The notes below the pieces were generated by a model. It ran no database searches, was not told the origin of the DNA, and saw only the letters and a list, made by a program, of their open reading frames with translations. A program made the position numbers and the translations under genes. A stretch of 64,000 nucleotides of DNA, from assembly GCF_964355755.1 (NCBI RefSeq), contig NC_092674.1, positions 7,812,001 to 7,876,000 of the forward strand. Reading direction: 5' to 3'. Below are positions 9,479 through 60,429 of the stretch, piece after piece (positions within the stretch are counted from its first letter, which is position 1; every line of letters begins with the position of its first letter). This stretch comes from Antedon mediterranea. Its lineage: Eukaryota; Animalia; Echinodermata.

Positions 9479-12400
9479 CTGTATTACAATCGTTTCCCCC
9501 AAAACCATTTTGACAAGCACAGCCGACTGGATCAGGTGGACATAAAAGAGCTCCTTGGCAATTTCCACTAGAAGAACACACGACGTTGCAGTCACGACCC
9601 CAGTTGTTATTTCCACAACCTATAGCAAATGAAATAGGCTTAATGTTCAATAACATGTCATCTTTTTTGTTTACATTGTTATAATATGTACATAATGTAG
9701 CAATATTTATTTATTACCCTGTTTGCAAAAAGTTCCTTTAAATCCTGCTGGACAAATACAAACTCCTGTCTTATCGTCACACACTCCACCATTATAACAT
9801 ACAGGACAGTCCATTTCACAGTTTGGAGGATTCCATTTTGGCGAAGGACAAGCTAATAGACAACGATTTACAAAATGTAAATACATGGAATTGTATTGGT
9901 CAGTTTATAATACATCTTTATGTGAGCTATAGAACAAAACGTAACTTAAATTTGGCATTAAAGTAATTTCAGGCAGTTTCAATTACGTTGTAAAATCACA
10001 CAATTTATCAATAAATTGATTATTTGGATCCAAATATAATTGTTTCAAAATATAAACTAGTTTATTTTGGAAATAAAAACCTAACTTTAATTGTTTATTC
10101 GCCACTAAAAACTTTTAAATAATATTGAAATCAAATGTCTGTAGTAGTCTGACGTGTTATACATTTTACAGAATTTCTTGTATTCATCAATGTAGTTGAA
10201 AATCAAAACAATGATTGATTTTTAATAACTGTTTAAACTTACCTCTAACAATAAGTCTCATGATGCCATGGTCACCATCAGGACTATCACCTGTATAACA
10301 TTCATATACGCCATCATCTTTTCTTCGTATGTTTTCAATCACAGCAGAATTAAACCCCATCAGATTTTCAAATTCATTGTAATTATGTCTCCAACGTAAA
10401 TCGTGAAGATCACCGCCTTTACTGAGATTGATAGTGACAGACTCTCCAACACTGACCGTTATCGTTCTATACTCCATTTCAACATTTGCTATAACATTTT
10501 ACGAATATAAACTAACTGTTTAATATTTTTTATTTAATAATCACCTCTTTTAAAAAACAACGTTATATATTTGTTATACTTTAGGGATGTATTGTCCCAC
10601 TGAAAAACTAATTCTTAACCAAATTTTTGCTTAATATGCCGTTCTAATGTAACATAATAGTTATCCACTTTGACCAAATATTGGATATGAAAAAATAAAT
10701 TTACCTAAATAAAGCTGTAATGTAAAGCAAAAATGGTCAAATTGACTGGCAGCCAATGGGATTTTTATTGAAGTTAACCATTTATTTTGTCATTTTATAA
10801 GTGAAAACATAATTTTGTGAATTGATTCATTTTTGTATACAAAATAAAATAATAAAATATTTATCATGTTTTGGGGGAAAATACAGGTACATCTTTAATA
10901 TTTCACTAATAAATTTGATATATGATAATTTAAAACAAACTCCGAAAAAAGTAAGGCAAGCCATTGTGATTCAAAATTTAAACTTTATTTGTTTATCTTC
11001 AGTAATAAATCATATTTCCACATTGTGACATAAGTACACCGAGTGTTGAGATAGAAAATTAATTGACTATTAAAATAATAAATAAATTATGAACCAATAA
11101 AGAAATAAGCAATAAAAATAAGCAAATAACAGAACAAGATGTAATTTCGAAATATTGAATTTTTACAAAATAAGATACATCATGTCATTACTCACCAGAA
11201 ACGGATATCAGTACAATAGCTGAGTTGGTGACTTCAACATTTGTTTTGGCTTCGAATGAAAATACACCAACTCTATCTGCAGCCTGTAATCCACTAACAC
11301 CGAGATACGAAAAATAATTTTCTCTATTGCGTATTCGGTATGTAACTAAGCTTTCGGTGGGAAATATTTTACCGTCAGGCATATCTCTTATGGCGTCTTT
11401 AGTGTTTTGACCTGGAAAACCATCTGTATCAGCCCAAGTCACATTATCTTTCCCAATAATTTTCTTGTATAAAATTCCAACTGATAAATCTCTGATGCCT
11501 TTATCACTTTCAACTGTGTATCCTCTAAAATAACCATTTTGGTCAAACGATGGTTTTCCAGAAAATGCTGTTATATCTAATGGATCTTGAAAAAAATAAA
11601 ATGAAGATAATATAATTACTGCACTGCAATTAGGTCTAATTAATAAGAGAATAGCATTGCCCTAGAAGAGTAGGACGGGAATGGAACATCCCAAGCTGCT
11701 GCTTGTGACTCTCGTCAACTGACGTTCTTCCGTCACTCCGAAGAACCAGTAGTAGACCCACAAACACTATACTATACTTATTACTATTATTGTCAACGAG
11801 TAAAATAAAATCTATATTATGAACATTTACACAAAACACGAAGCGAACGGGCGCTTGATAGGAAATCCTGTCTACCAGATACGCATTTTACATATAGGAC
11901 AAGCTACGCGGTTCTCCGCTTACCGTTCCTGCTCGTCTGTCCAAATTGGCTTTAACAAAGAATGAAACGCCAAAATACAGTAGGGACGTTGTAACCAGTT
12001 TTACGACGAAAATGTGTTAAAAGCTGAATACCGCAAAATGTACTACCAAGGTACTTCTTAGGTTTAATTTAATTATTAAATTAACAACGTGACATTCTAA
12101 AACAGATATATCATCAGTGACAATAAAGTGTGTGCAAAGTCTCCCCTCGCACACCAGCGAATCTTTCGAATCCCCCGCGCCTTCTGTGCCACGTGATTGA
12201 TCCAATCAAGAAAGAGATAATACTGGTAAGTATTTCCTTAATGATCCAATCAGTGGAGCAATGTTCTCACTTAATCCTTGCTGTACTATATTATGTGAGG
12301 GCGTGTGGCGCTGTGTATTGGACGTTCGACTACTGATCGTTAGACCGAGGTTCGAATCCAACTCTCACCACATTGCTTGTATCGTTAGGCAAGATACTTT

Positions 12401-13979: not shown

Positions 13980-14167
13980 CTCCACTAATGTCTACACGTC
14001 ATCCATGTTCATTAAGTAGCCAGTTATAATAGCAATGGTACGCTCATACACGTGTCTAGAACTTTTTATTTGGATAGAATGCTATATAATACAATGTTAT
14101 AGCAATGAATTAGTTAAATTAGCGAAACACAACAGACTTCTACAGCACTTAATATTAATATGAAGTG

Positions 14168-14218
14168 TTTCCTTGTTTATTTAGGTGTCTGTATATTAAC
14201 CCATGACCCTTTTATCTA
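14168..14218 (-). promoter_or_regulatory. Conserved upstream block of gene A
   Basis: TTCCTTGTTTATTTAGGTGTC.GTATATTAACCCATGACCCTTTTATCT recurs upstream of all four genes and contains forkhead-like and GATA-like motifs. Confidence 0.5.
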
Positions 14219-17200: not shown

Positions 17201-17693
17201 GAGTGAGACAATACGCATGGCCTAAACATCTTTCAATTGAAAATTAAGGGTGACCTAATTTAAAAAGAGTGTCAGGCAGTATGTAAGGTGAGGAACAGGT
17301 TGTATTACCTCTGAATGATGATGATTATGAGGTTTGGGGTGTTAGCCGATTTTAATTGTCAGTGTATGTGTATTACTGTACCTCCGAGTAACAGACTCGT
17401 TTTGGGCGTAGCATTCAATCGTGCGGTTTGTAAGAAAATCAGTATTCAACTTGTTACCTCTGACTACTGTGTAACGAGTGTTGTAATTGTTGGGATATTC
17501 AGCTAGTGTGTGAGTGTCTCAGCTAGTAGCACAAAACGTTGTGAGGTTTTAGTCTGTTAAATTTAAAGTAGGAAAAGGAAAAGGCTATCTGCATAGTCAA
17601 CCGTATGTATAACTTTTTTTTTGTTTTTCAATAGTAGTTATTACTTCTAGGTTTCTAGGTAATGAATATACGTATCAAGTATTAAGCACTCCT

Positions 17694-20600: not shown

Positions 20601-23600
20601 ACAATACATCTATTATTAAAACAAATGATTGTTAGAAAAAAATGCTTACTTTGAGTTGATAATCAAAATGTGATGGCGTTTGTTGTGTTTGCCGCTGTAT
20701 TTCGTTTTGCAATTCAGTTACAGGAATTACAGTCTCTCCACAAAACAATTCCTCAAGTATAACGGCATAGATAAACTTATATTGTTCCTGTAGATAAAAT
20801 ACATAGTTTAACAATGCAATATTAATGTTTGAAGTGCGAGAAACGGATGCCTAATGCTTGTCGGATGTGGCGCTGAGTGCCAAATAACGACGGGATGCGA
20901 ACAATATTGTAGGTCTGATAACATCTGTAATCTGGAAAAGTAAGGTAATCCAAGATTGTTATATTGTTATAGTAACATAACCGTACCGTAATGTATGTAG
21001 GTCTACACTTTATAGCTTATCGAGTTCACTATTTAAAAAAAAGTAGTATTTGGTAACACAGGTCATCCGTATAATCTGGGTACACTTTAGAATACAGATG
21101 AGCTTATAGTCGCGTGCAAACGCGACTCTATCTCACTATGTCGGTCGGTTGGTCGGTCGGTAAATACTAACTAAAATTTGAGCACGCGACTGCAGTCATG
21201 TATATGGCCTTGTTGTTTATTGAAGTTTCTGATTAAGCCAAAATAAACAAAATGTTTGTGTGTGTGTGTTATTGTAACTTTTCTTAATTGTGTTCATTTC
21301 TATGGTGCCAGTTATGGGTTCAACTTCACGTTCAACAAAAGGAAACAATAGATCAACTGATTTACGTCTAACCTCTGTTTGAACCATTTGGATACGTTTC
21401 TGCCTCATACTTCGTACAAAATTAAACACGTCCACTTTGCCTTGGTCCTTCGACATATCCAACATGGCGGCTATAGCGATTACAGTTCCAGTCCTACCAG
21501 CTCCCGCACTAACCGATTTTAAATATAATAATACAAAAATAATAATTACAAATTGTTTTGTTAGTCTCAACACATTTCTTTTTTTTCAATATATGTCTTT
21601 CCTTAACGTACAAAAAGGTATTGTGCTTAGAAAAATATCTAAATGTTTTTGGATACAATCAATTAACTAATCAACAATATTGAAAACGAAGATAAACTTT
21701 ATCAAATTACCTGCAATGTACAATAACTGGTCCACTACTAGACACTTTCTGCTGAGTTTTTCTAAATGTTTGGATAAAGTCGATTAACTGCGGAACGGCG
21801 TTGGAAACACTCTTGTCAGGCCATTCAGTAAAGTGATACTGGTATACAACGTTATAGATACTGTCTTCATCCCCTACCTATTAAAACAAAATTATTAAAA
21901 GTAGTCACAGCAGTAACTTCATTTGTTTTCCTCTTCCTGTTTTCAATTCACAGAATAAATGTAGAATTGAACTTGTGTCTGTACAACCCACTTAATTTAG
22001 TGTATAATTTGAATGAACGGAATGAACAAGTCATAAATTTAATATAAACCAATGCGGTCATTCTAAAACATATAAGCTCTTTCAAAGTATCTATATATAA
22101 ATTCACGTAAGGGCAAAATTCGGTAAATCGCGCCTTACTTCTAGAATGTTTACTCGATGGTATATAAAGTTGGTTCGTACTTTCGATACTGATTTTAACC
22201 ACCTGATGTAACCATGTTTACTAATGAAATGGAGTTCGATAATTAGTTATTGACGATTAAAACGAATTTAGGTTCAACGATTTGCCCCAAATAGGGGTGT
22301 TTTCCGATCGTGGTATACACTGTCCAATGCATGTCTATCTTGAAAAATACCCGCATACAATAATACGAGGATGCTTCGCATTTTCCTATCTCCTCCTACG
22401 ATAATTGTTTTTAATGGATGAAAACCGGTTGAACAGCTCGAGTACAGCATCATAATGTTGAAGACAGACCTATTTTCTTAAAAAAATACTATTTTGATAG
22501 ATTTGATATACATTTATACAAATGTATTGATTTCCGATGAATGGAACATTCCAATAATAACTCTTTGCTTTAACACAAGTACCACCAGCTGTAGGTAAAT
22601 TTATTGGCCCTTGGGGAATTAACCTAAAACGTATATATAGATATAGTATTGCAATAAATACGTATTAACATTTGTGGTCGCCATTGAATTTACTGTGAGT
22701 GTGGGTACTGTTAGATGTATAACACAATCATGTACAAATAAACGTATTACTGTGAGAGTAGGCCCTACTGTTATATAGAACGTACAATATTCAAATAAAC
22801 TGTAGTACTGACAGTTGCTTCTCAACGTTTGTATTAATTAATAATTACAAAGAATATAAACGTTGTAGTGGTACGTGTATCGTTACATGTACTACCGTAT
22901 TCTATTTCAATCGACTATGACAGTGACAGTTTTAACAATAAAGTATTAAGTCGCAAATGTGTTACTGTATCAAGTGGTATATTATTTATAGGCCTGTGAG
23001 TAGGCCCTACTGTTATACAAAACGTACAATATACAAATAAACTGTACTACTGACAGTTGCTTCTCAATGTTTGTATTAATTAATAATTACAAAGAATATA
23101 AACGTTGTAGTGGTACGTGTATCGTTACATGTACTATGCTATTTCAATGGACTATAACAGTGACAGTTTTAACAAAGTATTAAATCGCAAATGTGTTACT
23201 GTATCAAGTGGTATATTATTTATAGGCCTATCAAACATGAAAAACATATTTCGTTACTGAGTAGATAAAGAATATATTAAAACATTGTTCTTCTTTGTAC
23301 CCATATCCTCTTCCCCATCCCTCAACCCTAATGTTACACACAAAACACAAATTGGGTTTGTTTAAATGAGTCCAAATAACAAATTTGGACTCATTTTGTG
23401 ACAAGTTTCTCTTTCGGAAGTAATTTCCAGTGTGCTAATTTCAGTTTAATACATAAATCATCGTGTCTATTTATTCGTTTCTGTAAACAATAATAACTAT
23501 TATTATCCTGCAGTACGTACATTAAAAAAAAGCATTTTTTTACGCTGAAATTACTGTGTATTCGAGAACCATCTGTGGGCACGACCTAGATGGTACGCGA

Positions 23601-26600
23601 GCGAAGCGAGCGTACCATCTAGTACACACAATTGTAAGTATAATTATAGACAAAGATAATGATGAAACAGGATAAGGACCTAACTTAACTCATAATATAC
23701 CTTTTGAACTTGAAAAGTTCGGATGACATAATGACCGTAGTTGGTTTCACGTGCATTTGTAACAGATATACCTGCGTATTCCTGTCTATTATTTAAATCG
23801 GGCCAGTATTGTTCGCATTTTTTCTGAAAACAGATAAAAAACATTAATCAAATCATGGACCATGAACGTAATTGTAGGTCTAGCCATTTTTTTGTACTGG
23901 AGAATTCCACAAATTGACTGACTGAAATCAATCAACTCAATATTACTAATGCATACACATTTAGGTCATGTTTCCTACATTTTTCTCTATAACACAATCG
24001 CACAGTCATAATTACCCGTTTTCCCTCAACAAGATTCGTAACAACGACAATAACGCTAGATTTTTCTTTCCAGATCATTCTCCACATATCGTTCACTGAA
24101 GCAACATTCGGTCCTGAAAAATGGTGAATAAATAATATAAGTATCCTGTCTTATCAGGAAAGAGTGCGATTTCTTACCAAACGATTAGTTTTGTATAAGG
24201 TTAGATGTTGGCTATTAATTTGCGGTAAAATAAAATGTAATTCAGCAAAATAAAATGTAATTCAGCAAAATAATTTTTACCTTGACATGCGATGAATTCA
24301 TGCGGTATTGTATATCCCTGAAAAAAAGTTGTAAAACTACATTACATGCGATTGCATGACAAAATGTTAACTAATAACATACATTTAGGCCTACTATAAC
24401 TTAGCGATTACTAGCGACTAACAGATTAATATAATATTAATCTCATTCAAACGGCAACTGACGAGAAATGACTTAATGAATCTATGAATGTATTATAAAT
24501 GGCGATGGTTATTTTATTTAGTAAAATGTGTTTTCGACTGCAATTTTTTTTTGCTTCTAGTATGCGTAACCATGTCTCAATTTTAGTAGCCTAACTATTA
24601 CTTTTTAAAACTTACATCCAGATATGAAGCATTGATGTAGTCAGATCCCGGAACATTGTCAATCTTGTCAAGAACCACACGGGTATTGTCATCTGAAATT
24701 TAAATATTATAATCATTATAGTTGTAACTAAAATTGTAAGTTGAAGTTTAGCTGATAAAAAGAATAACAAATTAACACCATTACGTCATTACGTCATAAA
24801 TCTATACGTTTCTGCAGACCTTAATAATGATAGTGAACATGTTTGTGAAACTTACATGGTATTACGTTTGCATAGCGATTCTTTTTTTTATTTACTGAAG
24901 ATTTTGCGACTGTGCTCGGAAACAGGGGCTTGTTGCCAAGATCCTTCAGATAAAAGAACAATAAAATGGTGTATTATAGTGTTATGTAGTATTATATTAT
25001 CATCACAAGAATCAGACCACATGCATTCATACAAAAATACAATATTAAATGACCAAGTACAGTAAACATGACAAAGCTTAGTTCTAACTAGGACGAAATG
25101 CAATGACATAAGCGCAAGTGAGTTGACCAATCATAGTTGGCAGTTCAGATGATCCATCGCGTCGGGATTGGTCAAGATGAGCTTGCGCTGTACTTATTAC
25201 GAACCTCAAACTCTTTCTCAAAGCCACTTTCGAAACTTAATTGACGCTTCATCACATAGTCATGTAGTTTGGATAACTCAATGGGTTTGTACTCTTGGTT
25301 GTTCAACTGTGTGTTACCATACACTGGTTCCTGATCAATTTCAGTATCAGGCTGATATTCGGATTCAGACTCGACCTCGTCGTCAGTGTGTACTTGTTCT
25401 TTTGAAAAGTTTTCGACACCCCTCAATTCACCAGGGGCACCCTTCACTTCGTCATAGGCACTGTCTGTAAACACAAAACTTCAATTCAATTATTTTGTAA
25501 AATTTAATCGACCGGTACTTGTAAATCATAATACTACCAACAAGTATCACTCGCCAATGAGTACGGTACCTTTTTTACCCTATGATATTAGTATCTTACC
25601 TCCTATATCTTGTTCTTGTATAATTTGACGAGAGACATGACCACTAGTGGACACACAAGCACCGGATACACCACCAGCACTTTTATAACTTCTACGTCTA
25701 ATTTAAAGGAACAACATGTATGTGCATATTAAAGAAAGCGAGGTATTCTCCAAATAAAAAATAATCCCACTCAAGAATATTACTGGAAAGTATTCTAAAA
25801 CTTATTATAAAGTACAATTACGTAAGAGTAGGGAAAACCTCTGACCACAAAATAGTGATAAAAACCATTACAGGATTGGATTATAACAGACTATAAGAGC
25901 AACAAAAATGTCAATTACCGCTTAATTACAATCAACACCAGGAGAAGTATCACAAGCACTGGAATCAGGCATCCAATTATCACACCTATTGGAGCTCTAG
26001 AACCTTAAAATAAATAAGTATTGTGTAATTATTTAGTAATTTATTAAGTAAGTTGTTGGGAGAAGGGAGACATTTTACGTATAGTATAAGTATTATATTC
26101 TTTACTTAATCCAAAACGAGAATATAAATCAAGTGCGATATGTTTATAACATTGCTTACCCTGACTTCCAGATTCACAATCTGTCCCAAGCATAACTGCC
26201 GTTGTGTCAGATGTTCCTTCAACTTTTAAATATGACGCTAGTACTGTGAATGTATATTCTATACATAATTCAATTCCGTCAAAAAAAACTTCAGTTTCGT
26301 TAGTATTTCCTTGCTGAAATATTCCACCTGACAGTTTATAATGGTAAGTCAGCTGATAATCTGGGATGTCACATGTAGAAGTTTTCCACTTCATATGTAA
26401 ATGTGTTTCATTCGAGAATGGATTACTTTCTACCGATGGCTCTATTATAGAAACAGAGAATAAATAGACTATTGAACATAATTCGATTATTGAACATATA
26501 TATCTAATATAAATATCTTTAGAATAACAATACTGCAGTTCTCGTATAAGGACTCATTTTAACTCTATCTCTTTTATTATTTGTATTGATGTTGTACTAA

Positions 26601-29600: not shown

Positions 29601-32600
29601 ATCTTAATTTGCTACTCGGTAAGAGGGTAACACAGATGTTTAGCAATGGGGCTTTAGTTTTCTTTTGCGTTTCCTGCAACTTAGTTGTTTGCTGTTGTAT
29701 CGTTTAGTGTTGTTTACAATAAAGAATAATATACAGACGATACTGGGAATAATATTATATATTCAGAAAATGATAGTTGACCATAATATCACAATACTTT
29801 TAACAAATTAGACCTTTTGATAATATTAATTACGATATTATAAGTATATCAAAGTAACCTAATATTGTATACATTAATAGAAAACAACCAACCGTTTAAC
29901 TATACTATTCTATAATGTTCTCTTGACCTTCGCCTTGGACAAAAACATACTATTACATTCTAACCTGCCTTACAGTCTTTTCCTTTAAAACCATTAATGC
30001 ATGTACAGCCAACTGGATCAGGTGGACATAACAGAGCTCCATTGCAATTTGTTGAACCACACCTATTACTGCACTCATGACCCCAGTAATTTTTATCAAG
30101 ACAACCTTTAAACAAACAGTTTAAGATTTGGTATACAAATGTTGTATATACTAAATGCAAATGCAAATTCAAAAAGTAAGATCTACCAGAAATATTATTG
30201 TTCCATTGAAAATAATAGATAAAATGGGATATTCAAATATATAATATATCATTAAAAGTTGAATAAGTAACGCATACCTTGTTGTTTATCTATCAGTTGC
30301 ACTTATGTGACATGATGTTTGAATGTTGCCGCAATGGTCATAGATTAATATACGTTTTATAATGACGTACATTATTTTCGTATAAACGAATAATTCATCC
30401 AATTGCACTATGCAACATTTCTATAACTGTACTTTTTTTACTATTTTGTTTTGATGAAAATAGTCTTTTTGCAAACAACGTTGAACGAAATAACAGAAGT
30501 AAGCACTTCCGTCTGTATCATCTCTCATTTCTTTACATTATATATGCGCTATATAAGAATGAACTATTTTTATTATTATTCTATAGGACTTTTATTTGAA
30601 CCAACCAGAGAAGGTTTCATGTTCTATCAAATCCTGTTTCAGAATTTATTTATTTTTTACATTTGATATTTATACTGAAAGGCAACCAGCAATTTTTTTA
30701 ACATAAATTAACATCAACCAATCAAAAGTTATAGCAATACTATGCCTATGATTAATCATTTATTTTAACATTAATTATTGTTTGTGGTTACCAGTTTTAC
30801 AAGCATCGCCTTTGAATCCTGCTGGACAAATACAGACACCCGTCTTATCGTCACACACTCCGCCATTATAACATACCGGACAGTTCATTTCACAGTCTGG
30901 AGGATTCCATTTTGGTGAAGGACAAGCTATTAATTAGAATTAGTAAAATAAAATAATAACTTTTACGGTAAATATTTGCAGTGGTTAGGCTAATTTATGG
31001 GGTCAACGTTGTTATATTTATATACTTTGAAAAATATTCAGTATACACAAATTTATTTCTAAATGTTAACTTGATTGACATTGTGCAAGTCTTGAGTTTC
31101 ATCGATCAAATAGTTTACAATTAAATCTAGGCTTTTTATTGTATTCGGTCATTTGTTAAAGAGGTGGATAATTGCTGATTAACGAAAACAATTTCATAAA
31201 AAAAAATCTCTAGACATACCTCTAACAATAAGTCTCATGATACCATGGTTACCATCCGGACTATCACCTGTATAACATTCATATACGCCATCATCTTTTC
31301 TTCGTATGTTTTCAATCATAGCAGACGTATTACCCTTCAGATTGTGTATTTCCTCACCGTAATTATGTCTCCAACGTAAATCGTTAAGATTACCAACTTT
31401 ACTGAGGTTGATAGTGACAGACTCTCCAATGCTAACTGTTATCGTTCTATACTCCATTTCAATAATGGCTGAAGAATGATAATACATATATGAAAAAATA
31501 AAAGGAAAGCCCTCATAAAATCAATATTAAAAGGTGGTCTAAATATGGTACATTTTAACACAATGATTAATTCATTAAACCTTTGTTGGATTAAGCGATT
31601 ACTAAGCCCTGATCCGGGTAAATGTGTACCAAAACACTATATGTATTTAATTATACTATTAATACTAGTGAAAGGCATCTAGAACTGTTAAAATGTATGC
31701 CTGAATTTTATAAAGCAATGGTTCAAGTAGTAGAAGTGTATTTTAACAACATAAGTATGGCATACCCACAAAATGTAAACGAATTAGAAACACAACATTT
31801 GTGGGAAAATGCCTTTATAAAATGTAGTGGGAAAACATACTTCAAAAGTATAGGTTACAGACAGGTTATAAAACAATAAAAGATAAAAATAACATGGACT
31901 AATTTAATACTCCACACTTGTAAAGGCACTTCCCTCGAATTGGAAGAAAATAATTATAAGCAAAGTAAAAGTATTTAACAATTTTTTTATAAGCATTATA
32001 AATGATATATCTATTATTCCATCTTGTCAATCGAAATGGGAAACAGAATTTAGAAATATAAATTTTAAGTAGAAAGAACTATGGTATCAAAAAAGTATAT
32101 AGCATGAATCATGGAATAAAAGTAGATGTAAGCGTAAGCAACGCATGAATAAAATAAAAAAATCTTGATTTGTATGAACATTTCCAGAACGAAATTGAGA
32201 CAGATGAACACAATAATGCTTTTTAATGTAAAAGCATCCAATAAGTATTGACAAAATCAACAACATGATTGTAAAATGATAAATAAATCTAAAGGAAAAT
32301 AACTGGAAAAAATGACAAAAGATTATCAAATCAATCAAGTATTTTTGTTATTCATCATCATAAATATGAGAATAACATCGTGACCTAACTCACCAGAATC
32401 GGATGTCAATACAATTGCTGAATGTGTGATTACACCATTTTTCTTTGCTTCAAATGAAAATACACCAACTCGTTCAACCTGTGTTGGTAAGGAAACACCT
32501 AGCAACGCATGCAGACTGTGTACTCTGTATCTAATTGAGCAACTTGTTGGAAATATTTTATTGCTTGGCATATTTCTTGTTCTTTCATTTTTAGTATTGC

Positions 32601-33712: not shown

Positions 33713-33916
33713 CTCTCCACTAAAGTCCACACACCTTCTTGTGTACAGAGAATGAGAAGGTGGTTAGTTCTAGCAGTGGTACCTTATTAAGTGTCTGAAA
33801 TTCAATATTCGGTTGGTATGCCGTGGTATACTTAACAAGGTAAAGCAATGAAGTTAACAGTCGCATTAGTAAATCTATTCTTAACAACAACAGACCTATC
33901 TCTCCCAATACAAATT

Positions 33917-33968
33917 GTTTCCTTGTTTATTTAGGTGTCGGTATATTAACCCATGACCCCTTTATCTT
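33917..33968 (-). promoter_or_regulatory. Conserved upstream block of gene B
   Basis: Same block as 14168-14218, about 200 bp upstream of the ATG. Confidence 0.5.
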
Positions 33969-36342: not shown

Positions 36343-39300
36343 TCATTTTTGAAATGTATTATCATAAACATGATCCGGTACAGGTTGAGTGTCAGGCTGG
36401 GTGTTTGCGTACAAGTGTTCACCAGCACCTGTAACTGTAGGCTTAATACCTTCATATTCACTTTCTTTATATTTTTTAGACAAACTTTGATAATCTGTAT
36501 CTATGGCGCAAACATTTTGTTGAGTAGTAGATACTTTATCAACGTCTTTATCAACGTCTTTATCAACGTCTTTTTCTGACTGATTTCTAAATCTAAAATG
36601 AACAAATGTACCGTAGTTAATAATAGTCCATCATCGCAAAGGGCTTTTTTTCAGAAATGATTTGATCGTAATGTTCTGTATATATCATTGTCTAATTTCT
36701 TTACCATAGTAAGAGTATAACATTAAACACATAAATTACTTTACTTTAGAGTAATACTTTACCGTTTAGAAACCGTCAAGGTGACAGCAACTGTGATAAC
36801 TGTCCAAAGTATTGAGCCAATTACAACTCCTATGACGTAACCTGAAAATAGGATATTTTATCGTTTTTGAAATTATCATTTGAAATTGTTTTACTCATGT
36901 TGAATTTTCTAAACGAAACACTACATACAGTTTCTTTACGAAAGGTCTAGTTTCTAAGCAATTATTTCTTTAACATTTAACAGTTATAACATATCTATAA
37001 AGCTATTACGAAAGCCCAATCTTAATCCAAAAGCAAAATAGAAAAATACACACCTTGAATATTCTGGTTTTTGTTTGGTGATTCACAATATGTCCCTAAC
37101 CTAAATTTCGTTGTGTCAGATGTACCTTCAACGTTTAAATATGATGCTGATACTGTGAATGTATATTCTATATTACAGGACTCAATTCCGCCAAACACAA
37201 CTTCCGTTTCTGTTGTAGTTTCTTGCTGAAGTATTCCACCTGACAGTTCATAATGGTAGGTCACCTGATAGTCTGAGATGTCACATGTAGAAGCGTTCCA
37301 TTTTATCTGCAAATGTGTTCCATTTGTGAATGGATTGCTTTGTATCGATGGTTCTATTATTAGAACAGAGAATAAATATAACTATTTGAAATAATACTGA
37401 AAATGTTGTAGTGTAATGTTCTTTTTCAATTTAGATAAACACACTAAATATAGCATTTACTTTATATTTATAAGAAAATAGCATTTAAAATATAACATAA
37501 TATATAATTTCAAATAAAATGGACTATTGTAAGACATACTTAATCGGAACTTAAATATAGCTAATCGTTACCTGATGGCGATGTGTGTACCATCATATCT
37601 TTTCCCCAATTACCAGCAATCTCAAAGTCATTAACAACTCGAGCGTTTACGACATATTCAGTACAACTTGATAATCCTGATAGTTCAACTTCTAATTGAG
37701 AACTACTTGTTGTGTTGACAACATCTTGTATATTTCCATCTATTTCTGAGTATTGCACTTGATATTGAAGAATAGAGTTACACTGAATTCGTTCAGGAGC
37801 ACTAGAAACCGCCTGAATATAATTATAATCAAAATATTTATATCAATAAAAATTCTTTATCAGGAGGTTAAAGAAATAAATAAAAAAGAATAATTATGTT
37901 ATTTTCATTAATTTGGAAACTGTTTTTTTTTTAACTAATTCGTGTTATATCAAGGGAAGAGTAACAATTTCCATAGTCCCACCGGGCGGTTTAAGATTCC
38001 CGTTTCTGCTTGATCTCTGTTGCATCGGTATATTTCAGCAAAGCTGCGTAAGAAAAATGATCAAAAAATAAAATAAAAACATTTTGAAATTTACCGTTAA
38101 ACTTATAGTGACCTCGTGATCCACAATGTTCTTAAACGCAACCTTAGGTTCTTCTAACGGTTCTATATCATAATCAATGCAATAAATGATTAGAACTGAG
38201 CGCATAGAAACGAAATATAATTATACTGTCACTTCAAAACATAGGATTATAGATTAATCCATGTATAAAGAACAATTACACAATGTATCTACTTTCATCT
38301 ATAAACCATTTAAAGATTAAATTGATATTCATTAATATTTATTATTATTATAAATGTTTTGAAGTATATTTGCATATTGAAAATGTATTAGTAATACAAA
38401 ATGTATTTGAAAATATTTTTCAAAAATGAATCAATTGATGATATTAAAAAAAAACAACAAATATTGATGCTACATTTAAAAGCTTACACAAAATATTCTT
38501 AATTGGTTGATTGTTATAATATTTATTCGGTCATCAATGTAAAAATAACCAGGAATGAGAATAGGCTAAAGCCCAAACAGATTCTGCACTCACTCCATAC
38601 AGTACAATCAGTTAAAGATAAAACCATATACAAGAAAAATACAAATAAATTATACATAACATGAAATATAGTGTTTTGTTAGAGCAGCCTTAAATATTGA
38701 AATTGTTTGTGAATCTTTTATGTCATTTGGTATTTGCTCCCATAGTCTAGGAAAGGAAACAAATACAGAATTGTGAAAAGTATTGCCTTTCGAATTCCAA
38801 CGTAAAAGCCTACCCGGACATCTTTCACTAGTTTTAATATACTCATTGAAAGAATGGGGACAGTAACCTTTCAACACCTTAAATCTTAATGAAAGTCTAT
38901 GTAATTTAAACAAGTCATCAATAGATAATAATTCAAGCACTTTCAACCTATGAAAATAAAGATGTGTCCCAGGAAACAATTACTGATAAATGTGTTGGTA
39001 GGGTCTGAATTCGATCTGAAATGATACGTTACTACCGGTACTATACTTACTAGTACATATGGTGCTCGTTTGTCCAAGTGCACTTCTTGGTCCATCTACC
39101 TCAATACCACCAACCATTCTCGAAAATTTAGAGTAGAATTGAACTTGAGTATTTGGGATGAGATTATCAATAAAAATAAATAAATCATTATCTAGTTTAA
39201 CTATAGAGGTAAATGAATCCATCTCCGATGATTTATACAAAAGCTTCCGTTTTGTAATTGTTCCTGTTCCAGAGTCTTCGCCGGGAATCCAAGTGACGTC

Positions 39301-42300: not shown

Positions 42301-45300
42301 CTATTCAAGGTATTATTCTATAATCTTTATTTGTCATATTTGGGGTGGGGGAAATACATCTTTTTAAATAAATGTTCACAGTTTTTCTTTTACTATGAAT
42401 AACATGTAGCTTCCAAAACCAGTAACGAATCCGAGTATATTTTGTAATAACCTATTTCAGAATTTTTATTTTGTATCTTTTAACAATAACTATTATCTGC
42501 ATACTTAAACCAATATAAACTATTGTATGTTTTAACAATATTATGTAATTACCGTGTTTACAAGCATCGCCGTCGAATCCTGCTGGGCAAATACAGACAC
42601 CCATCTTATCGTCACACACTCCGCCATTATAACATACTGGACAGTCCATTTCACAATCTGGAGGATTCCATTTTGGTGAAGGACAGGCTAAACAAAATTG
42701 ATTAAAATACAATAATAATAACTTAGGTTTACTGTCTCTCTGAAAGCCAAATTATGGTCAATGTATTTTTTTTTTTTTATAATCAATCGATATAATTTAG
42801 GCCTATACTTCAAAATTGAATCATACACATTCAAATTGATTTCAGAACTTGATTGATAGTGTGCAATTACAGAAGTGTACAAAGGTATATACAGTGGTCT
42901 TTTCATTGCATTCAGCCATAGTAAAAAGGTAAATAATTGCTGATAAAAGATTTTAATAGAACATATTAAAAACAAAAATTAAGACTTACATCTAACAATA
43001 AGTCTCATGATACCATGGTTACCATTAGGACTATCACCTGTATAACATTCATATACGCCATCATCTTTTCTTCGTATTTTCTGAATCACAGCAGACGTAC
43101 TACCTCTCAGATTGTGTATTTCCTTTCCATAATTATGTCTCCAGCGTAAATCGTTGAGATCACCACCTTTACTGAGATTGATAGTGACAGACTCTCCAAT
43201 ACCGACCGTTATTGTTCTGTGCTCCATTTCAATAGTGGCTGTAAAACCATTATACAAATATTAATAATAAAAGTTAGGTTTGCGGTATAACGATGTGTTT
43301 CCAAACAGGAAGTATAATATTATTAAGAATGTCTTGACGTTTCGGTTGTTATGCTTCAGTCTTCTGGAGAAAGCTAGACAATGAAAGATGAGCAAGTGAG
43401 GTCATGAGAATGCAAATAATAGTACATGACGTATTGATATATAGACTTTGTTTTATGTTTTTTAATAAGCTATCAAACAGATATACATTTTTTTTAAATA
43501 AAAAGATGTATGAATAACACCATGACCTTACTCACCAAAAGCGGATGTCAAGACAATTGCCGAATTTGTGACTACTCCATTTTTCTTAGCTTCAAATGAA
43601 AAGACACCAACTCGTTCAGCCTGTGTTGGTAAGGTAACGCCTAGATACGTGTAATCAATGTGTACTCGGTATCTAATTGAGCAACTTGTTGGGAATATTT
43701 TATTATTTGGCATACTTCGAGATAGTTCAGAACCAGTACCGGTATTGGCACCCATATACGGCCCAGTATCATCCCAAGTTACGTTGTCTTTACCCTCAAT
43801 ATTCTTGTACAATATTCCAACTGATAAACCTCTAATTTCTTTGTCGCCGTCAATTGTAAATCCTCGAAAATAACTATTACCATTATTTTGAACCAGTGGT
43901 GTTCCAGAAAATGTTGTTATATCTAATGGACCTTTAAAGAAAATTTTATTTTATGATTAACTTATTATTAACATTATTGCAGTTATGTGAAGTAAGTGAA
44001 AGAGTAAATCAAGAGGTATTAGGCCTATTTGCCTTAGAATGTTTATAGAAAATAGAATGTAATACACAGTAATAAATTTGAAAGACAATATAATTTATTG
44101 TTTGACTTAACTGTATTTAGAGACCGCAAGGTTTTACATTAGAATACAGATCGGGTGAATGCACATTTTTAAAATTTGAATTAAAAAAATTAAATGTCAT
44201 ACTCATGTTTATTTATTTATTTTATTTATTTATTTCATTTTCCAACCAACAGTGAACTCATGGTTCACCACTTACAGGAGGGAACACAGACAAATACGTA
44301 CACAAACAATAAAAAAAGATTAAACTAAGCTACTAACAATGTTACGAAACTTACTGAGATTATTACTGAAGATATCTAACTCAGGATTTCTTAAAGTTCA
44401 TATTCCCCTTTAGACTTAGCACTCGCATTCATATTTAATAAATCACATACTCAGCCCGTGAATATATTAAACGTAACAAAACATGATATCTACTACTACT
44501 TTTATATTTAATAAATAAAAACATCATATTAGGGTTACTCTCCTCAAAAAGAGAGAACACGTGATATGTTTGAACATACGAGATGTTTACAAAATGAAAT
44601 ATAATTGTAATTTTGTAGATTTCCAACCATAATGCACCAGTGTGTTGTAAAAGCATTCAAACAGACATTTGCGAAAGAACGTCAGACATAAATTTGTTGT
44701 CACTATAATTTGTTTAGGGTATATTGAAATAGAAATTATTAACCGACATACGATCAGTTTCTCTATAGCTATAGAATGGTTTTCATGTTCCCATCCTCTA
44801 TCGCCAGCCTCCTACGCCATCTATGACAAGCGAACACGATTACGTAACATTAATTGGTTGAACACTAAACACAGTAAAACATTGCGATGTAATACTTTGT
44901 TGAAACTATCACCGTCCTAGTCGATTGAAATAGTACAGTAGGCCTTACATGTAACGATACATCACTACGACGTGTATAGGTTTATATAATGTAAAACAAT
45001 TTGTGAAAACCACCTCTATTCGGGAAAATCATAAATTCGATTTAATCGTCAATAAATATTAAATTATCTAACTCAACTTAATTAGTAGGCCTAATGGTTT
45101 TTAATTGTTTCTTAGAGCCAATTCATACTTAAGTTGGTTCCTACCCTACCCACCAAAGTTGTTCTGCGTTTAGGGCATGTGATGTACCGTAGGCCTATCC
45201 TCTACTGGTTTTACAACGCTACTCATGCCAGTGAGGGAAGGGTGATGATGTGGGTGATTTAACTGCAATAATAAAGATTTATACATAATATTCGGCGAGT

Positions 45301-48989: not shown

Positions 48990-49361
48990 AAATAATTTAT
49001 TGATTTTGAGTTGTGATTTGAAGTGATTTTTATTTTTTTTTGCTAGCACGAGATAAACATATTATAGGTAAAGGCAAATGAAGACGGATACAAATAAAAA
49101 CACATATTAAAGTAAACAAATATATTCAAAAATATTTTTCGCACAGACACAGAACACATTCTAAACCGCCCGGTGATATCTGAATATTAATTAATTAATC
49201 AATTTGAAACATAAATTATATAATTACATATTTAATCTGCATAAATTTAAACTTAATTAAAAAGTTACATTCTCACATTCAAGCCAATTTAAAAGTTTAT
49301 GAAATATATATTGTCTCCCTGTAAAAAAACAATTTAAATATATGATTATATAATAATTTAA

Positions 49362-50478: not shown

Positions 50479-53400
50479 TCACTTTTCAAATGTATTATCA
50501 TAAACATGATCCGGTACAGGTTGAGTGTCAGGTTGGGTGTTTGCGTACACGTGTTCACTAGAACCTGCAATGGTAGGCTTAATACCTTGATATTCACTTT
50601 CTTCATATTTTTAGTCGCGTGGAAGCGACTCTATAGTTCACTATGTCGGTCGGTCGGTCTGTCTGTCTGTCTGTCTGTCTGTCGGTCTGTCTGTCGGTCT
50701 GTCTGTCTGTCTGTCGGTCCGGTATCACTATGCGTTTTATCGCTTTATGACCTTATCTTGATATCAGTTTAATCTAGCTAAGTCAATTTTTCACAGAATA
50801 TTCCTTATGGCCAGGAATCGATGTGGTTATGTTTTCACGGTGCGCAATAAAAAATTACGCGGTCTATGCACGATTTAACGAAATCACGTTTGTAATCATA
50901 TCTTAACAACCATGAATCACAATTAAATAAAATTTGGTACTCATAAATTTCAGGGCATAAATCATCATATGGCAATACAATTACGTGCGTAGCCCATGTA
51001 ACGCATGCGTACGCGCGCTTAAAATTTTCAAAATTTATTTTCGATGAAATAAGAGTACGTTTCAGGCAATTTTAAGCGTTTACAAAATTGCCATGAGTGC
51101 GCAGATTTTGGCGCGCGCAGTGCGCGTTAAATGTTATTGCGCACTCTTTTTGCCCGATTTCTGTTTTCTTGACTTACTTTTTAACTCGAAATTACGTTAT
51201 ACGAGCACGTCAAAAGTGACAGGCTACGCACGTGTAAATTTAAAAAATATAACTGTTTTTAAACATTTCAACATTTTTAAACATGTTCAGTAATTTCGGT
51301 CAGTATAGTTCACTATGTCGGTCGGTCCGTTTGTCTGTCGGTCTGTCTGTCTGTCGGTCTGTTTGTCTGTCGGTCCTGTATCACTATGCATCACTGTTGG
51401 CCTTGTTTAGACAAACTTTGATAATCTGTATCTATGGCACAAACATTTTTTGGAGTAGCAGATGCTTTATCAACGTCTTTATCAACGTCTTTTTCTGACT
51501 GATTGCTAAATCTAAAATGAACAAATGTACCGAAGTTAACAAAAGTTCATAGTTCACCATCGTAAAGGTTGTCTTTCTAATTTTTTTCCAGAAATGATTT
51601 GATCGTAATGTTCTGTATTTATCATTGTCTAATTTCTTTACCATAGTAAGAGTATAACATTAAACACATAAATTACTTTACTTTAGAGTAATACTTTACC
51701 GTTTAGAAACCGTCAAGGTGACAGCAACTGTGATAACTGTCCAAAGTATTGAGCCAATTACAACTCCTATGACGTAACCTGAAAACAGGATATTTTATCG
51801 TTTTTAGAATTATCATTTGAAATTGTTTTTCTCATGTTGAATTTTCTAAACGAAATACTACATACAGCTTCTTCACGAAAGGTCTAGTTTCTAAGCAATT
51901 ATTTCTTTAACATTTAAAACATATCTATAAACTATTACGGGAAGCCCAATATTAATCTGAAAGCTAAATAGAAAAATACACACCTTGAATACTCTGGCTT
52001 TTGTTTGGTGAATCACAATTGGTCCCTAACCTAAATTTTGTTGTGTCAGATGTACCATTTACGTTTAAATATGAGGCTAATACTGTGAAAGTATATTCTA
52101 TACTTGGCTCAATTTCTCCACCAAATAATACAACTTCAGTTTTTTCCGTTCTTCCTTGCTGAAATATACCACTTGACAGTTCATAATGGTAGGTCACCTG
52201 ATAGTCTGGGATGTCGCACCAAGACGCGTTCCATTTCATCTCCAAATGCGTTCCATTTGTGAATGGATTACTTTCTAACGATGGCTCTATTTTTGGAACA
52301 GAGAATAAATAAACTATTGAAAAATATATAGTAGTTTATTCTTGGATTCTCCTTTTTATAAATTGTACAAATACTTGCCCTGAACACGCACAATTTATTA
52401 TAAACAATTACCTGATGGCGATGTTTGTACCATCATGTCCTCTCCCCAATTACCAGCTATCTCAAAGTCATTAACAACTCGAGCGTTTACGACATAAGCA
52501 GTACAACTTGATAATCCTGATAGTTCAACTTCTAATTGAGTACTGCTTGTTGTGTTGACAACATCTTGTATATTTCCATCAATGTCCGAGTATTTCACTT
52601 GATATCGAAGAATATAGTTACACTTAATTCGTTCAGGAGCACTGGAAAAAGGCTGAATATATATACAGTACAATCAAAATATTTATATCAAGTTAAAATA
52701 AATTCATTCTTTATCAGGAGGTTAAAAGAAAAAAAATAAAAAGGAATAATTATGTTATGTTCAATAATTTTAAAACTTTTTTATTTTTAGCAATTATCGT
52801 ATCGTTATATCGCAGGGCGGTTTAGCCTTTCTTCTTCTGCTTGATCTCTGTTGCGCGTACAATTGAGTGCAGTTGTTAAAGAAAATATGTAGTGAAAAAT
52901 CTAGTAAATGTTTGAGTATAAATCAATAATATGAAAAACAATGGCATTTTATTTTTAAAACATACATTCCGTATATTTATTTCGGCAAAGCTGCGTAGAA
53001 ACATGATTCCAAATTTAAAAAAAAAACATTTTTAAATTTACCATTAAACGTATAGTGACTTCGTGATCCTTAATGTTCCTAAACTCAATATTAGGTTCCT
53101 CTAAAGGTTCTATATCATAAGCAATGAAATAAATGAATAGAACTGAGCGAATAGAAATGAAATAAAATGTATCATGTCACTTCGAAATATAGATGAAACC
53201 AATTGCAACAATTTATGTACTTTCATCTATAAACCATACAAATATTAAATTGGTATTTATTAATATATATTATAGAATCTTAAAAATATATCTACACATC
53301 GAAAATGTATTAGTTCAAATAAAATATCAAATTAAAAAAAAAAATCAATCGATGATACCCAATTATTGTTGCTGCTAAAAGCCAACACAACATATTCTTA

Positions 53401-56400: not shown

Positions 56401-59400
56401 TTGACATATATAACTTGATATTTTAGCCTGAGCAAGATAGTTTGATAGGCATATTTTACTTCGATGTAAACAAGATATTACATGTTATACTGTATGTAAA
56501 ATACTTTTGTGTAAATAAAATTATTTAATGGTGGTTAATTTATTAACTTGTTAATTTGTTTGTTAGTTATATGATGTTATACTACTTACTGTATTAATTA
56601 TTTAGTTAGTAACCAAAGTGAAGTGGATTCGTGTCAGTTGCAACTTGACTGTAATATGCATATATATAATAATATAAATCGTGGTGAATTTAACGCAGAC
56701 CATGAAAGCGAAAGTGCTCGATACAAAATGTAGAGCCGAATATAAATAAATGAAAGACGCTAGTAAATTACCAACTGAACATTTTATTGCACTACAGGCT
56801 CTTTCATGAGTATGAACTCAATCTTCAGGTGCTTGGCTCTGATTCAGAGCCAAGCACCTGAAGATTGAGTTCATACTCATGAAACAGCCTGTAGTGCAAT
56901 AAAATGTTCAGTTGGTAATTTACTAGCGTCTTTCATTTATTTATATATATAATAATATGTACTTCTTGGATAAAGTTAAAGGAAAATAAGCAATAATAAA
57001 AATTAAATATTTATTTTGCCATAAAGAAAGCAAAAACTAAACATACAGTACTATATGTACAGTAATACCATGGACCTATAGGTCCATGGTAATACATACT
57101 GTAGTATTGAGCACCAGTAGCAGAGACGTCTGGACAATCGAATATAATCGTTATCAGCTGTCTGGGTACCCAAGGCTAGTGCTAGAAAATGGCGAAAATT
57201 CGTGTATTCATTCGCCGTCAGCGAAATGAATCCGGCACTTTTCTCATCAGAAGCAAATCAACAAATCCTTTTATCAGTTTGTTTTGATATATAATCTGGA
57301 TAATATATATTAAAATGGCCTTGGTTCAAGCATGTTTAACGGGTAAAATCAGATTTTTTCCTACCTAGGCCCCTTAGCACTGCGGTACCCTACGCCGTGT
57401 GGGGGAACCGATCTCGGCAGTATTTCTTAAGTAGCCTATCTTTCGTAAACTCCTTAGTTGAATTTTATTAATATAAATTTAATTGTATGAATATGCTATT
57501 TAAATGTTATTGAACATTTTTTTGCTGCATTTTGTAATTCCGCACTACTTGCTTTATCGCGATTCCAAGATGGCAGCAATTCAAATTTTGATTTGGTAAT
57601 AATTCGTGAGGTCAACCACTTTGCTGCCCGACTGTACATACGGCACCGTCGATCTGAATGAATGTTGGCGCTAATTTGCGCTTTGTGGCTGCACTCTGCC
57701 AAATGAACGTTATCATGAGAAATGAACGTTATCATGAGTAATAAACGTTTTATTTCTTTATATATTAAGTGTATCATCGAACATCTAAATAATACATAAT
57801 ACAACTTATGAAGCAGATGGAAAGTATGGCTACGTATCATAAGTAAAATTGTTTTTGAATATTTTAAGACATTATAACGGATTTATTAATCATGTAAATG
57901 TTCTTCTGATTTCCATAGAAAAACATTATCAATAATAATTATTAACCTGAAGTACAGTCTTTTCCTCCAAAACCATTGATACATGTACAACCAACTGGAT
58001 CAGGTGGACATAAAAGAGATCCTCTGCAATTTCCACTAGAAGAACACACAACATTGCAGTCACGACCCCAATTGTTATTTCCACAACCTATCGCAAATAA
58101 ACACGTTACATAGAATCCATTTAATATCTATTTGTTTACACAGATTTTAGCAGTTTATAATTAGCCCTACCGTTTTTACAAGAATCGCCGTTGAATCCTG
58201 CTGGACAAATACAGACACCCGTCTTATCCTCACACACTCCGCCATTATAACATACCGGACAGTTCATTTCACAGTCTGGAGGATTCCATTTTGGTGAAGG
58301 ACAAGCTAATAGATTTTCATTAAAATATAAAATACATGTAGTTGTATTACTCGACAGGTTTATAAATTATAGAACAGAAAGTAACTTTATGTTCGGCAAA
58401 TCTGAGTAATGGTTTAAATTACAGAAATATAAACTAATATATAATTAAATGTTTTTCAATATCAGAACAAAAATAACAACCGTACTATTATCTGTACTTA
58501 TTTATTTTCTCGCAGGTCTATTTTTATCAACAGAAGAGGAATTCATTATTTGGATCCAGATGAAATTAATTCAAAATATAAACTTTTGGAAACAAAAAAA
58601 TTACAGTATTCGGCATGAAAACCTTTAAACAAATGTGTACAGTAATAACATGCAGTTGTATTACTCGACAGGTTTATAAATTATAGAACAGAAAGTAACT
58701 TTATGTTCGGCAAATCTGAGTAATGGTTTAAATTACAGAAATATAAACTAATATATAATTAAATGTTTTTCAATATCAGAACAAAAATAACAACCGTACT
58801 ATTATCTGTACTTATTTATTTTCTCGCAGGTCTATTTTTATCAACAGAAGAGGAATTCATTATTTGGATCCAGATGAAATTAATTCAAAATATAAACTTT
58901 TGGAAACAAAAAAATTACAGTATTCGGCATGAAAACCTTTAAACAAATGTGTACAGTAATTATAATATTTGTGGTGGTTTGACGTGTTACACTTTTTACA
59001 TAATATTTTGTATTATTCATTTGTAACACTTACTTCTAACAATAAGTCTCATGATACCATGGGTGCCATTCGGGCTATCACCTGTATAACATTCATATAC
59101 GCCATCATCTTTTCTTCGTATGTTTTCAATCACAGCAGACGTATTACCCCTCAGATTGTGTATTTCCTCACCGTAGTTATGTCTCCAACGTAAATCGGTA
59201 AGATCACCACCTTTACTAAGATTGATAGTAACAGACTCTCCAATACCGACCGTTATTGTTCTGTACTCCATTTTCACATTAGCTGTAAAATTATACCAAT
59301 AAGCTAAGTAGTGTAATAGACTGGCTGATGTGTTATAATACCTATTAAAAATATAACATTAAAATGATACCATGCCATTACTCACCAGAAGCGGATGTCA

Positions 59401-60429
59401 GAACAATTGCTGAGTTTGTGACTACATCATTTTTCTTAGCTTCGAATGAAAAGACACCAACCCTGTCTGCGGCCTGTAAGCCACTAACACCTAGATATGT
59501 AAAATCTGCGTGTAATCGGTATATAACTTTACTTTCGGTGGGAAATATTTTACCGTCTTGCATATCCTTTGTCGTCGGTCTAGAAGAGGGACCGTTAAAA
59601 TTTCCAGTATCATCCCAAGTCACGTTATCTTTCCCATCAATATGTTTGTATAATACTCCAACTGATAAATCTCTAATGTTTCTGTCGTCTTGAAGTGTGA
59701 ATCCACTAAACCAACCAATACTATTATCGTCAACTAGTGGCGATCTAGAATGAATTGTTATATCTAATGGATCTATAAAAAATAAGATTGTATTAATGTA
59801 TATATTTAAATCTCACGAGGCAGATACAGAATGTCCGCACATACATACATACATGGCAGTCAATTTACGGCAGTTAAATTAATTCTGTAGGTCTAAAAGT
59901 AGACCATTTGCCTCAAAAGGTTTTGCCGAAATAATAGAGTCAGACGGAAATGCAATACATACAATAATTTAGGTAATGACGTATTATTATATCACAGTTC
60001 TACTTAACCGATGCTAATAATAATAGGACTATTTACAACAGATAGTTCATTTATCACATTGACAATGTGACACCCACTCCGTCTGGTATAGAGCGTATTT
60101 CAATCAGGGTGGGTTATAAAATAATAACAGCTTTACCGTTTCAGTTTTTATAAGACAGAGCATGGTGCGAACCGTCCCACGAAATTATTGTTTTCATACA
60201 CAAACACTTCAACAAGAATAACATTTGTATTACAAAGACTATTTTAATGAATACAATTAATTAGAACCATGAGTAAATAGTGAACAAGATAATATCTATA
60301 TTCTATATTATATACAATTATAATAATATGCCTGTAAAATTATAAAACACTACCTGCGAATCCAAAATGGAACGTCAAAGATAAAGCTATAACCAGCCGA
60401 AACAAGATTGGTAAACGTTCAGTCAACAT
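50479..60429 (-). CDS. Gene D: Tie-like ectodomain receptor; ITAM tail exon interrupted by a HINE (new stop at 51391)
   Basis: Exons 60429-60354, 59772-59386, 59282-59034, 58305-58171, 58087-57947, 54855-54724, 54575-54435, 53808-53500, 53109-53042, 52652-52412, 52286-51984; TM 51778-51700; tail from 51511 (...DTDYQSLSK then insertion-derived QGQQ*). The remainder (KYEESEYQGIKP...VYANTQ...VYDNTFEK*) lies at about 50610-50479. Confidence 0.85.
50611..51407 (+). mobile_element. Long HINE/DINE-1-like element inserted in a T-run of the gene D last exon
   Basis: Starts TTAGTCGCGTGG, has two (GTCT/GTCG)n tracts and ends GGCCTTGTT. No clear TSD. Empty site ATTTTTTAGAC in gene C at about 36471-36481. 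Confidence 0.85.
56789..56832 (-). ncRNA. Mirror-copy hammerhead ribozyme with a stem III mismatch
   Basis: Reverse complement of 56854-56897, but GAAAG replaces GAAAC. Confidence 0.6.
56854..56897 (+). ncRNA. Minimal type I hammerhead ribozyme
   Basis: GCAC-CTGAAGA-T-TGAGT-TCAT-ACTCA-T-GAAA-CAGCCT-GTA-GTGC: stem I GCAC/GTGC, CUGANGA core, stem II, GAAA, palindromic stem III, GUA cleavage triplet. Confidence 0.8.
58334..58960 (+). repeat. Near-perfect two-copy tandem duplication (314-bp unit) in gene D intron 3
   Basis: ACATG.AGTTGTATTACTCGACAGG...AAATGTGTACAGTAAT starts at both 58334 and 58648. Confidence 0.9.

Follow-up and report, generated by a model that had tools for sequence, protein, structure and literature searches.

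The stretch of DNA analysed here (the window, 64,000 nucleotides from the crinoid Antedon mediterranea; all coordinates are window positions) carries four tandem paralogous receptor genes, A, B, C and D, all on the minus strand, whose features are collected in Table 1. Exon boundaries were placed at the AG/GT nearest to the reading of the minus strand, and the exons were spliced by coordinates. All four models are open, with AG/GT at each junction, including those of a 68-nt micro-exon inside the second fibronectin-type (FN3) domain that is required for an open frame in B, C and D. Residues 1-757 of C are identical to the RefSeq model P0001, the last 690 residues of B to P0064, and A is contained in P0005; these agreements, together with the open frames, bear out the first-pass annotation of this DNA, which had described four tandem paralogs with shared exons for a signal peptide (SP), two immunoglobulin-like (Ig) domains and EGF repeats. 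The exons of D map to a further model, P0011. P0064 begins in the second FN3 domain and lacks the 5' exons; the join between the head and the phosphatase of B is accepted because of the open frame in B and the full-length paralog P0004. The EGF3 exon of P0005 was not found inside the window, and therefore A probably extends beyond it, past the retroelements at 600-8800.

The products of B, C and D share the domain order SP, Ig1, Ig2, four EGF exons, three FN3 domains and a transmembrane segment (TM). Pfam gave no match for Ig1 in any of the four exons (A-D). Tie2 accounts for the top three of four PDB sequence matches to the head (E 1e-32), a family profile of 10 rows carries the alignment into Ig1 of Tie2, and Tie2 is the first structural match (E 2e-24, TM-score 0.63) to a folded model of A built from 56 rows (pLDDT 87.5); a first fold from 15 ragged rows was discarded at pLDDT 40. 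Thus, the earlier description of the ectodomain as Tie-like holds: the Ig-Ig-EGF head is homologous to that of Tie2, and the cluster shares with Tie1/Tie2 (PDB 2GY5, 4K0V, 9LV4) and the sea urchin SpTie1/2 the Ig1-Ig2-EGF head followed by three FN3 domains. On the other hand, neither Ig3 nor a cytoplasmic kinase was found in the genes of the window. A fourth EGF exon occupies the position of Ig3 of Tie2 and is followed directly by FN3, the tail is either a protein tyrosine phosphatase (PTP) or short, the Ig1 cysteine in the YFC motif of Tie2 aligns with serine in the Antedon family, and the family is multi-copy. As they have no Ig3 and no kinase, these genes, judged by sequence, bear a Tie head and stand outside the Tie family.

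The cytoplasmic parts of the paralogs differ fundamentally. B has the layout of a classical tandem receptor PTP (RPTP): behind the TM, the first phosphatase domain (D1) carries KNRY, WPD, HCSAGAGR and Q-loop, i.e. all catalytic motifs are intact and D1 is predicted to be active, while the second domain (D2) reads HCLDGVCR and is of the pseudophosphatase type. The tandem PTP announced by the first-pass annotation is therefore upheld, unlike the accompanying motif of the inhibitory type (immunoreceptor tyrosine-based inhibition motif, ITIM). The sequence in question, SAYDEV, matches the ITIM consensus at chance level (22% of shuffles). Nor is it conserved: the closest PTP paralog has NAYDEV at this position, and two Anneissia relatives lack the motif. 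We dropped the ITIM reading; if B is the inhibitory member, its means would be the intrinsic PTP. The 83-aa tail of C, in contrast, contains no enzyme; it comprises an immunoreceptor tyrosine-based activation motif (ITAM), a pattern that arose in 0.09% of cases when the tail was shuffled 100,000 times, and two YxN motifs. C is thus a candidate activating member, as had been claimed for both C and D. The claim stands for C, whose ITAM is conserved in paralogs; in the present sequence of D the motif is broken.

Homolog searches added more Antedon models from the 31.9-Mb contig that carries the window, and their comparison suggests where the short tails came from. The tail of C aligns with the juxtamembrane region, from TM to wedge, of the PTP-bearing paralogs, and ends after the second YxN, just ahead of their wedge segment. 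When the juxtamembrane regions are aligned, the paralogs can be classified by tail into five states, ranging from PTP to ITAM only. In the first state D1 is intact and there is no ITAM (B, P0004). In the second, an ITAM is combined with a D1 that lacks only KNRY (P0213 and the fragments P0054 and P0214), and in the third with a D1 that lacks KNRY, reads WSD and has the catalytic Cys replaced by Ser (P0024, three isoforms). The fourth state has an ITAM-like motif and a deleted D1 (P0013, P0215), and the fifth an ITAM and no PTP (C, P0011, P0055). P0054 was considered as a separate ITAM-only gene and rejected, being probably a split model; its label in the FN3 tree described below is wrong. Altogether the ITAM exon is present in seven Antedon gene models (C, P0011, P0055, P0213/P0054, P0024, P0215 and P0013), of which all keep the first YxxL/V and six the second Tyr. 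Every carrier found has a lesion or loss of the catalytic domain, and an intact KNRY loop occurs in none of the seven; conversely, the ITAM is found in none of the four aligned relatives with intact D1 (B, P0004, P0019, P0051). Because these paralogs form a graded series, the activating tail is likely a truncated receptor-phosphatase tail.

The trees are consistent with this direction of change. Quick PTP trees, built from 18 rows apiece, group the damaged domains of P0024 and P0013 as sisters to B/P0004 within crinoids and leave the active PTPs of Anneissia outside, with SH-aLRT support of 91 (D1) and 94 (D2), i.e. below the star threshold of 95; the damaged D1 branch is long (0.49 vs 0.02-0.06). 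A B-like ancestor whose phosphatase decayed once Antedon and Anneissia had separated would give this pattern. An FN3 tree was built from 27 out of 32 rows, five having been omitted because they aligned over a short length or not at all; in it, ITAM and PTP members mix within one Antedon clade with support of 100/99.

The distribution of variation along the ectodomain is uneven. Over the 55 pairs of 11 Antedon genes, the mean identity is 60% in Ig1, 80% in Ig2 and 77% in EGF1-2, and the variation of Ig1 is concentrated in indel-rich patches. It is noteworthy that the fibrinogen-like domain is reported to be bound by Tie2 via Ig2 (PMC8560823), i.e. via the domain that is conserved in this cluster, while Ig1 varies; from this we infer a different or additional ligand here than a fibrinogen-like domain. 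The suggestion that the genes are mosaic was confirmed. In SP+Ig1, B equals C at 98 sites and C equals D at 29; in EGF2-FN3c the counts are 58 and 153 (Fisher p 2e-19). C is a mosaic in which the promoter, the signal exon and Ig1 go with B and the remainder with D: the 300 nt upstream of C are nearly those of B (Table 1), while the corresponding stretch of D is only 63-64% identical to its B and C counterparts, and the TM exons of C and D are identical. When full-length Ig1 domains of known tail class are compared, the nearest relatives lie across the tail classes, C (ITAM) with B (PTP) at 77% and D with P0004 (PTP) at 71%, compared with 64% for B-P0004 and 60% for C-D within a class. The exon at the presumed ligand-binding end has thus been exchanged between tail classes.

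We propose that B and C are, rather probably, paired off and on receptors with a Tie head, in which the brake is a built-in phosphatase and the tail with the ITAM probably arose by shortening that of the phosphatase receptor. In this scenario, a Tie-head receptor phosphatase of old origin multiplied by tandem duplication, and a single lineage among the Antedon copies acquired an ITAM just inside the membrane. Catalysis would then have been lost stepwise in the ITAM lineage, first the phosphotyrosine-recognition loop, then the catalytic Cys, then all of D1, and finally both domains, and recombination would have transferred blocks of promoter plus Ig1 between PTP-tailed and ITAM-tailed genes. 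In the living animal, a ligand would cluster C, a Src-family kinase would phosphorylate its ITAM, a tandem-SH2 kinase of the Syk/SHARK type would dock there, and Grb2 would be recruited to the YxN sites. Probably expressed together with C and attracted by its similar Ig1 to that ligand, B would dephosphorylate C directly, with neither ITIM nor SHP phosphatase. The paired-receptor reading of the first-pass annotation gains support because the similarity of Ig1 crosses the tail classes and all ITAM carriers found have a catalytic lesion or loss; its ITIM is not supported, and its ITAM of D is broken in the present sequence.

Several observations weigh against our proposal. First, B ends in a YxN motif that is conserved across the family. 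Phosphatases of the PTPalpha class, which activate Src, likewise end in YxN, and PTPalpha and CD45 prime Src-family kinases. By this analogy B need not be inhibitory: it could be an activator that primes the very kinases that phosphorylate the ITAM of C, so that B and C would cooperate. The naming of the B model as epsilon-like by RefSeq and the absence of a credible ITIM from B agree with such a role. We consider it quite unlikely, since loss of catalytic motifs in cis is a consistent trait of the ITAM carriers, as would fit a phosphatase that opposes the ITAM.

Second, the tails of C and D raise the question whether both genes are decaying duplicates with non-functional remnants for tails. 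The only RefSeq model found for C is isoform X2 (P0001), which skips the ITAM exon in favour of another last exon; isoform X1 turned up in none of the homolog searches. After the first half of its ITAM, D runs into a 795-nt insertion and meets a stop; GT-AG ends were found in none of nine registers tried, and three exact-length registers from the boundary letters of the insertion were also non-canonical. Many models of the family are truncated as well. However, the frames are open over 13 exons, dN/dS is below 1 in all domain comparisons of C and D (0.20-0.47), and the ITAM residues are kept in five further models. Decay of both genes therefore appears very improbable. P0011 skips the insertion and has an intact ITAM; our guess is that an insertion-free, transcribed allele of D stands behind it.

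Third, comparison of whole domains gave no sign of positive selection on Ig1, with dN/dS at 0.35-0.61 in all six pairs of A-D. The earlier attribute "hypervariable" is borne out in so far as Ig1 is more variable than Ig2. Moreover, the synonymous sites of Ig1 differ between B and C (dS 0.33), so this exchange is not recent. The genes might instead be adhesion or growth receptors evolving by birth and death, their enzyme-less copies being decoys or generic Tyr-docking scaffolds that act in development or regeneration. This would involve no paired immune logic and agrees with dN/dS below 1 in Ig1; tandem arrays turn mosaic by unequal crossover without selection, and the Tie head occurs on kinases, PTPs, an adhesion G protein-coupled receptor (GPCR) and fibrinogen-domain proteins alike. 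Such a family would have to account for both YxxL/I/V halves being kept in otherwise divergent tails, for an ITAM pattern so rare by chance and for two cross-class Ig1 pairs, and we regard it as unlikely, if the strongest of the three alternatives.

Finally, P0213 (with the fragment P0214) combines the ITAM with intact CX5R, WPD and Q-loop, only KNRY being gone. Since Cys, Asp and Gln are retained, this protein may still be catalytic alongside its ITAM, and the stricter rule that the ITAM always accompanies a dead catalytic Cys is ruled out. The ITAM carriers may also descend from a single event, in which case the seven are not independent, and all data on paralogs are automated RefSeq models, several of them visibly split or fused.

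The cluster resembles the vertebrate paired receptors (CEACAM1/CEACAM3; the ceacam pairs of Xenopus, PMC5112662; Siglec-5/14, PMC4042635) in its apparent mode of working, with clustered genes, similar ligand-binding ectodomains, an N-terminal Ig shared across the tail classes and an ITAM member; it departs from them in that an intrinsic PTP would take the place of an ITIM as the brake, and the ITAM tail seems to derive from the PTP receptor's own tail. In Xenopus the ligand-binding exon is reported to be exchanged between the classes with synonymous differences nearly absent (PMC5112662). The cross-class Ig1 pairs and the shared upstream region of Antedon resemble this exchange, but the pairs are only 71-77% identical, and dS between B and C is as given above. 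Receptors with ITAM or ITIM tails are already known from invertebrates: Botryllus FcoR and Hydractinia Alr (PMC12065747) are Ig receptors whose tails carry ITAM/hemITAM or ITIM motifs, and splicing can swap these motifs, as the two last exons of C may do. Unlike the Antedon genes, they have unrelated ectodomains, no intrinsic phosphatase and, according to that source, a demonstrated role in allorecognition. A further parallel is provided by the snail EGF-RPTP clusters that map to schistosome resistance (PMC12297450, PMC13712769), namely the Biomphalaria SudRes1 MEGF/GBD-RPTPs (PMC12297450) and the LG5R class F-like scavenger receptors of subgroups 1B/1C (PMC13712769). They too are clustered, EGF-rich, single-pass receptors, some with tandem PTPs and others with short tails, and the genome-wide association with parasite resistance is theirs; LG5R proteins carry Tie2-ligand-binding-superfamily signatures (PMC13712769). 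Their heads are lectin and not Ig-Ig, the text examined describes no derivation series, and the word ITAM does not occur in the main texts of the two papers (supplements were outside the search). Compared with classical tandem RPTPs (PMC7959691), B has the same active-type D1 and pseudophosphatase-type D2; the Tie-type ectodomain, the tandem expansion and the damaged, ITAM-bearing derivatives set the Antedon family apart. A literature search, mainly of open-access texts without supplements, returned neither a Tie-head PTP/ITAM family nor ITAM receptors derived from receptor phosphatases.

The combination of a Tie head with a tandem PTP was found in other echinoderms (Anneissia, Apostichopus, Holothuria, Diadema, Amphiura, Patiria, Asterias), in amphioxus and in the scorpion Centruroides, and is thus old. 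The head is an old swappable module, since it sits on an adhesion GPCR in Holothuria (P0048) as well as on the scorpion tandem PTP (P0083). In amphioxus, P0039-P0043 and P0045 combine Tie-like heads with a fibrinogen domain (PF00147), some also with a kinase. The ITAM exon of the Antedon type was found in Antedon alone among the proteins examined. A profile search gave 239 representatives at E up to 1e-30, and of 197 proteins retrieved 68 have the Tie motif and a TM. An ITAM pattern ahead of the PTP was found in none of the 19 with an active-type P-loop (HCS[AT]GxGR), and an ITAM pattern in none of the four with a damaged PTP; the nine kinases gave one loose match. The 36 non-catalytic proteins, many of them truncated models, gave two strict matches and, with these included, six loose ones, of which one (P0067) was dropped as it sits in a kinase domain. 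ITAM-like tails on Tie heads occur in Anneissia (P0063) and, outside crinoids, in the sea urchin Lytechinus (P0129, strict), the brittle star Amphiura (P0038) and the acorn worm Ptychodera (P0086). Separately, the Apostichopus Tie-head RPTP P0188 has a degenerate P-loop in D1 and many Tyr residues in its juxtamembrane region, and is possibly a parallel case in a sea cucumber.

By analogy, the most likely setting for the cluster is immunity or self/non-self recognition on coelomocytes, at roughly even chances. Transcripts of Tie and Tie-like genes are reported to be elevated in sea urchin coelomocytes (PMC6494969), the surface proteins of sea star coelomocytes to include a Tie-2-like kinase and an RPTP (PMC13409769), and Syk and HTK16 transcripts are listed for the sea star egg (PMC11593052); this literature, like that on snails, concerns other genes than the Antedon cluster. 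It is tempting, if more speculative, to envisage an immune-recognition system in which ITAM receptors evolve from receptor phosphatases, with all intermediates in one genome, with a phosphatase in place of ITIM and SHP as the inhibitory partner, with Ig1 blocks swapping between on and off tails, and with recurrence across ambulacrarians, as the ITAM-like tails of brittle star, sea urchin and acorn worm would suggest. If true, it would offer a concrete route for the origin of activating immune receptors, in which the tail of a phosphatase receptor acquires an ITAM and catalytic function disappears step by step, and a third design beside ITAM/ITIM pairing; the snail clusters of PTP and short-tail receptors would merit re-reading by the same logic. 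The cluster is also a candidate recognition family for crinoids, whose immune system is almost unstudied.

Table 1. Features of the receptor cluster and of its surroundings in the window
Feature	Position	Strand	Remark
Gene A	13979-9479	-	first 5 exons (SP, Ig1, Ig2, EGF1, EGF2), 328 aa
Gene B	33712-17694	-	28 exons, 1419 aa; SP, Ig1, Ig2, EGF x4, FN3 x3, TM
Gene B, inner part			juxtamembrane region, then tandem PTP
Gene C	46502-36343	-	13 exons, 840 aa; B-like ectodomain, TM, short tail
Gene D	60429-51390	-	13 exons, 793 aa to early stop; ectodomain and TM as in C
Ig1 exon of A, variable	11196..11585	-
Ig1 exon of B, variable	32394..32780	-
Ig1 exon of C, variable	43536..43931	-	77% aa to B, 60% to D
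Ig1 exon of D, variable	59386..59772	-	71% aa to PTP paralog P0004
D1 exons of B (WPD loop, P-loop, Q-loop)	21373..21877	-	PF00102
SAYDEV of B, ITIM-like	25445..25462	-	aligns with distal ITAM half of paralogs
ITAM of C (YQSL-x8-YEGI)	36445..36492	-
Alternative last exon of C, without ITAM	35357..35447	-	RefSeq isoform X2 (P0001)
Insertion splitting the ITAM of D, 795 nt, with microsatellite	50611..51405	.	ends recur at 21104-21161 and 41890-41960
Rest of D tail exon (second ITAM half, two YxN, stop)	50479..50610	-	in RefSeq P0011
300 nt upstream of C start codon	46503..46802	-	93% identical to B (33713-34012)
LTR-retrotransposon-type open reading frames	598-6507	+	downstream of A EGF2 exon
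LINE-type reverse transcriptase open reading frames	6831-8794	+	adjoin the LTR element
Short-element family	50611-51405, 41890-41960, 21104-21214, 62248-62345		shared ends, GTCT/GTCG microsatellite
Palindrome, 103 bp, near-perfect	56740-56946		1-nt spacer; D EGF2-EGF3 intron
Tandem duplication, 314 bp, exact	58334-58947		D Ig2-EGF1 intron; includes acceptor approach
High-copy repeat	22088-22555, 45447-45913		opposite orientation; common to B and C introns

Adjacent RefSeq accession numbers (the runs P0004, P0011, P0002 and P0024, P0064, P0005, P0014) hint that the cluster reaches past both ends of the window, with P0004 adjoining D. Contig depths at Ig2 sites sum to about 2000-5000, compared with about 30 for unique intron contigs (run X2). 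This had hinted at many copies; it is not a copy number and was not used. Run X1, presumed to be RNA and covering introns and repeats, gave no exon-to-exon splice joint in the 15 listed of its 231 joints.

The long terminal repeat (LTR) element, whose fragmented reading frames encode reverse transcriptase, integrase and DUF5641 and which we take to be Bel/Pao-like, probably sits inside an intron of A, and is adjoined by a long interspersed element (LINE). The palindrome and the exact duplication both lie in introns of D, and one high-copy repeat is common to introns of B and C. The insertion that splits the ITAM of D is one copy of a family of short elements, presumably akin to DINE-1/HINE.

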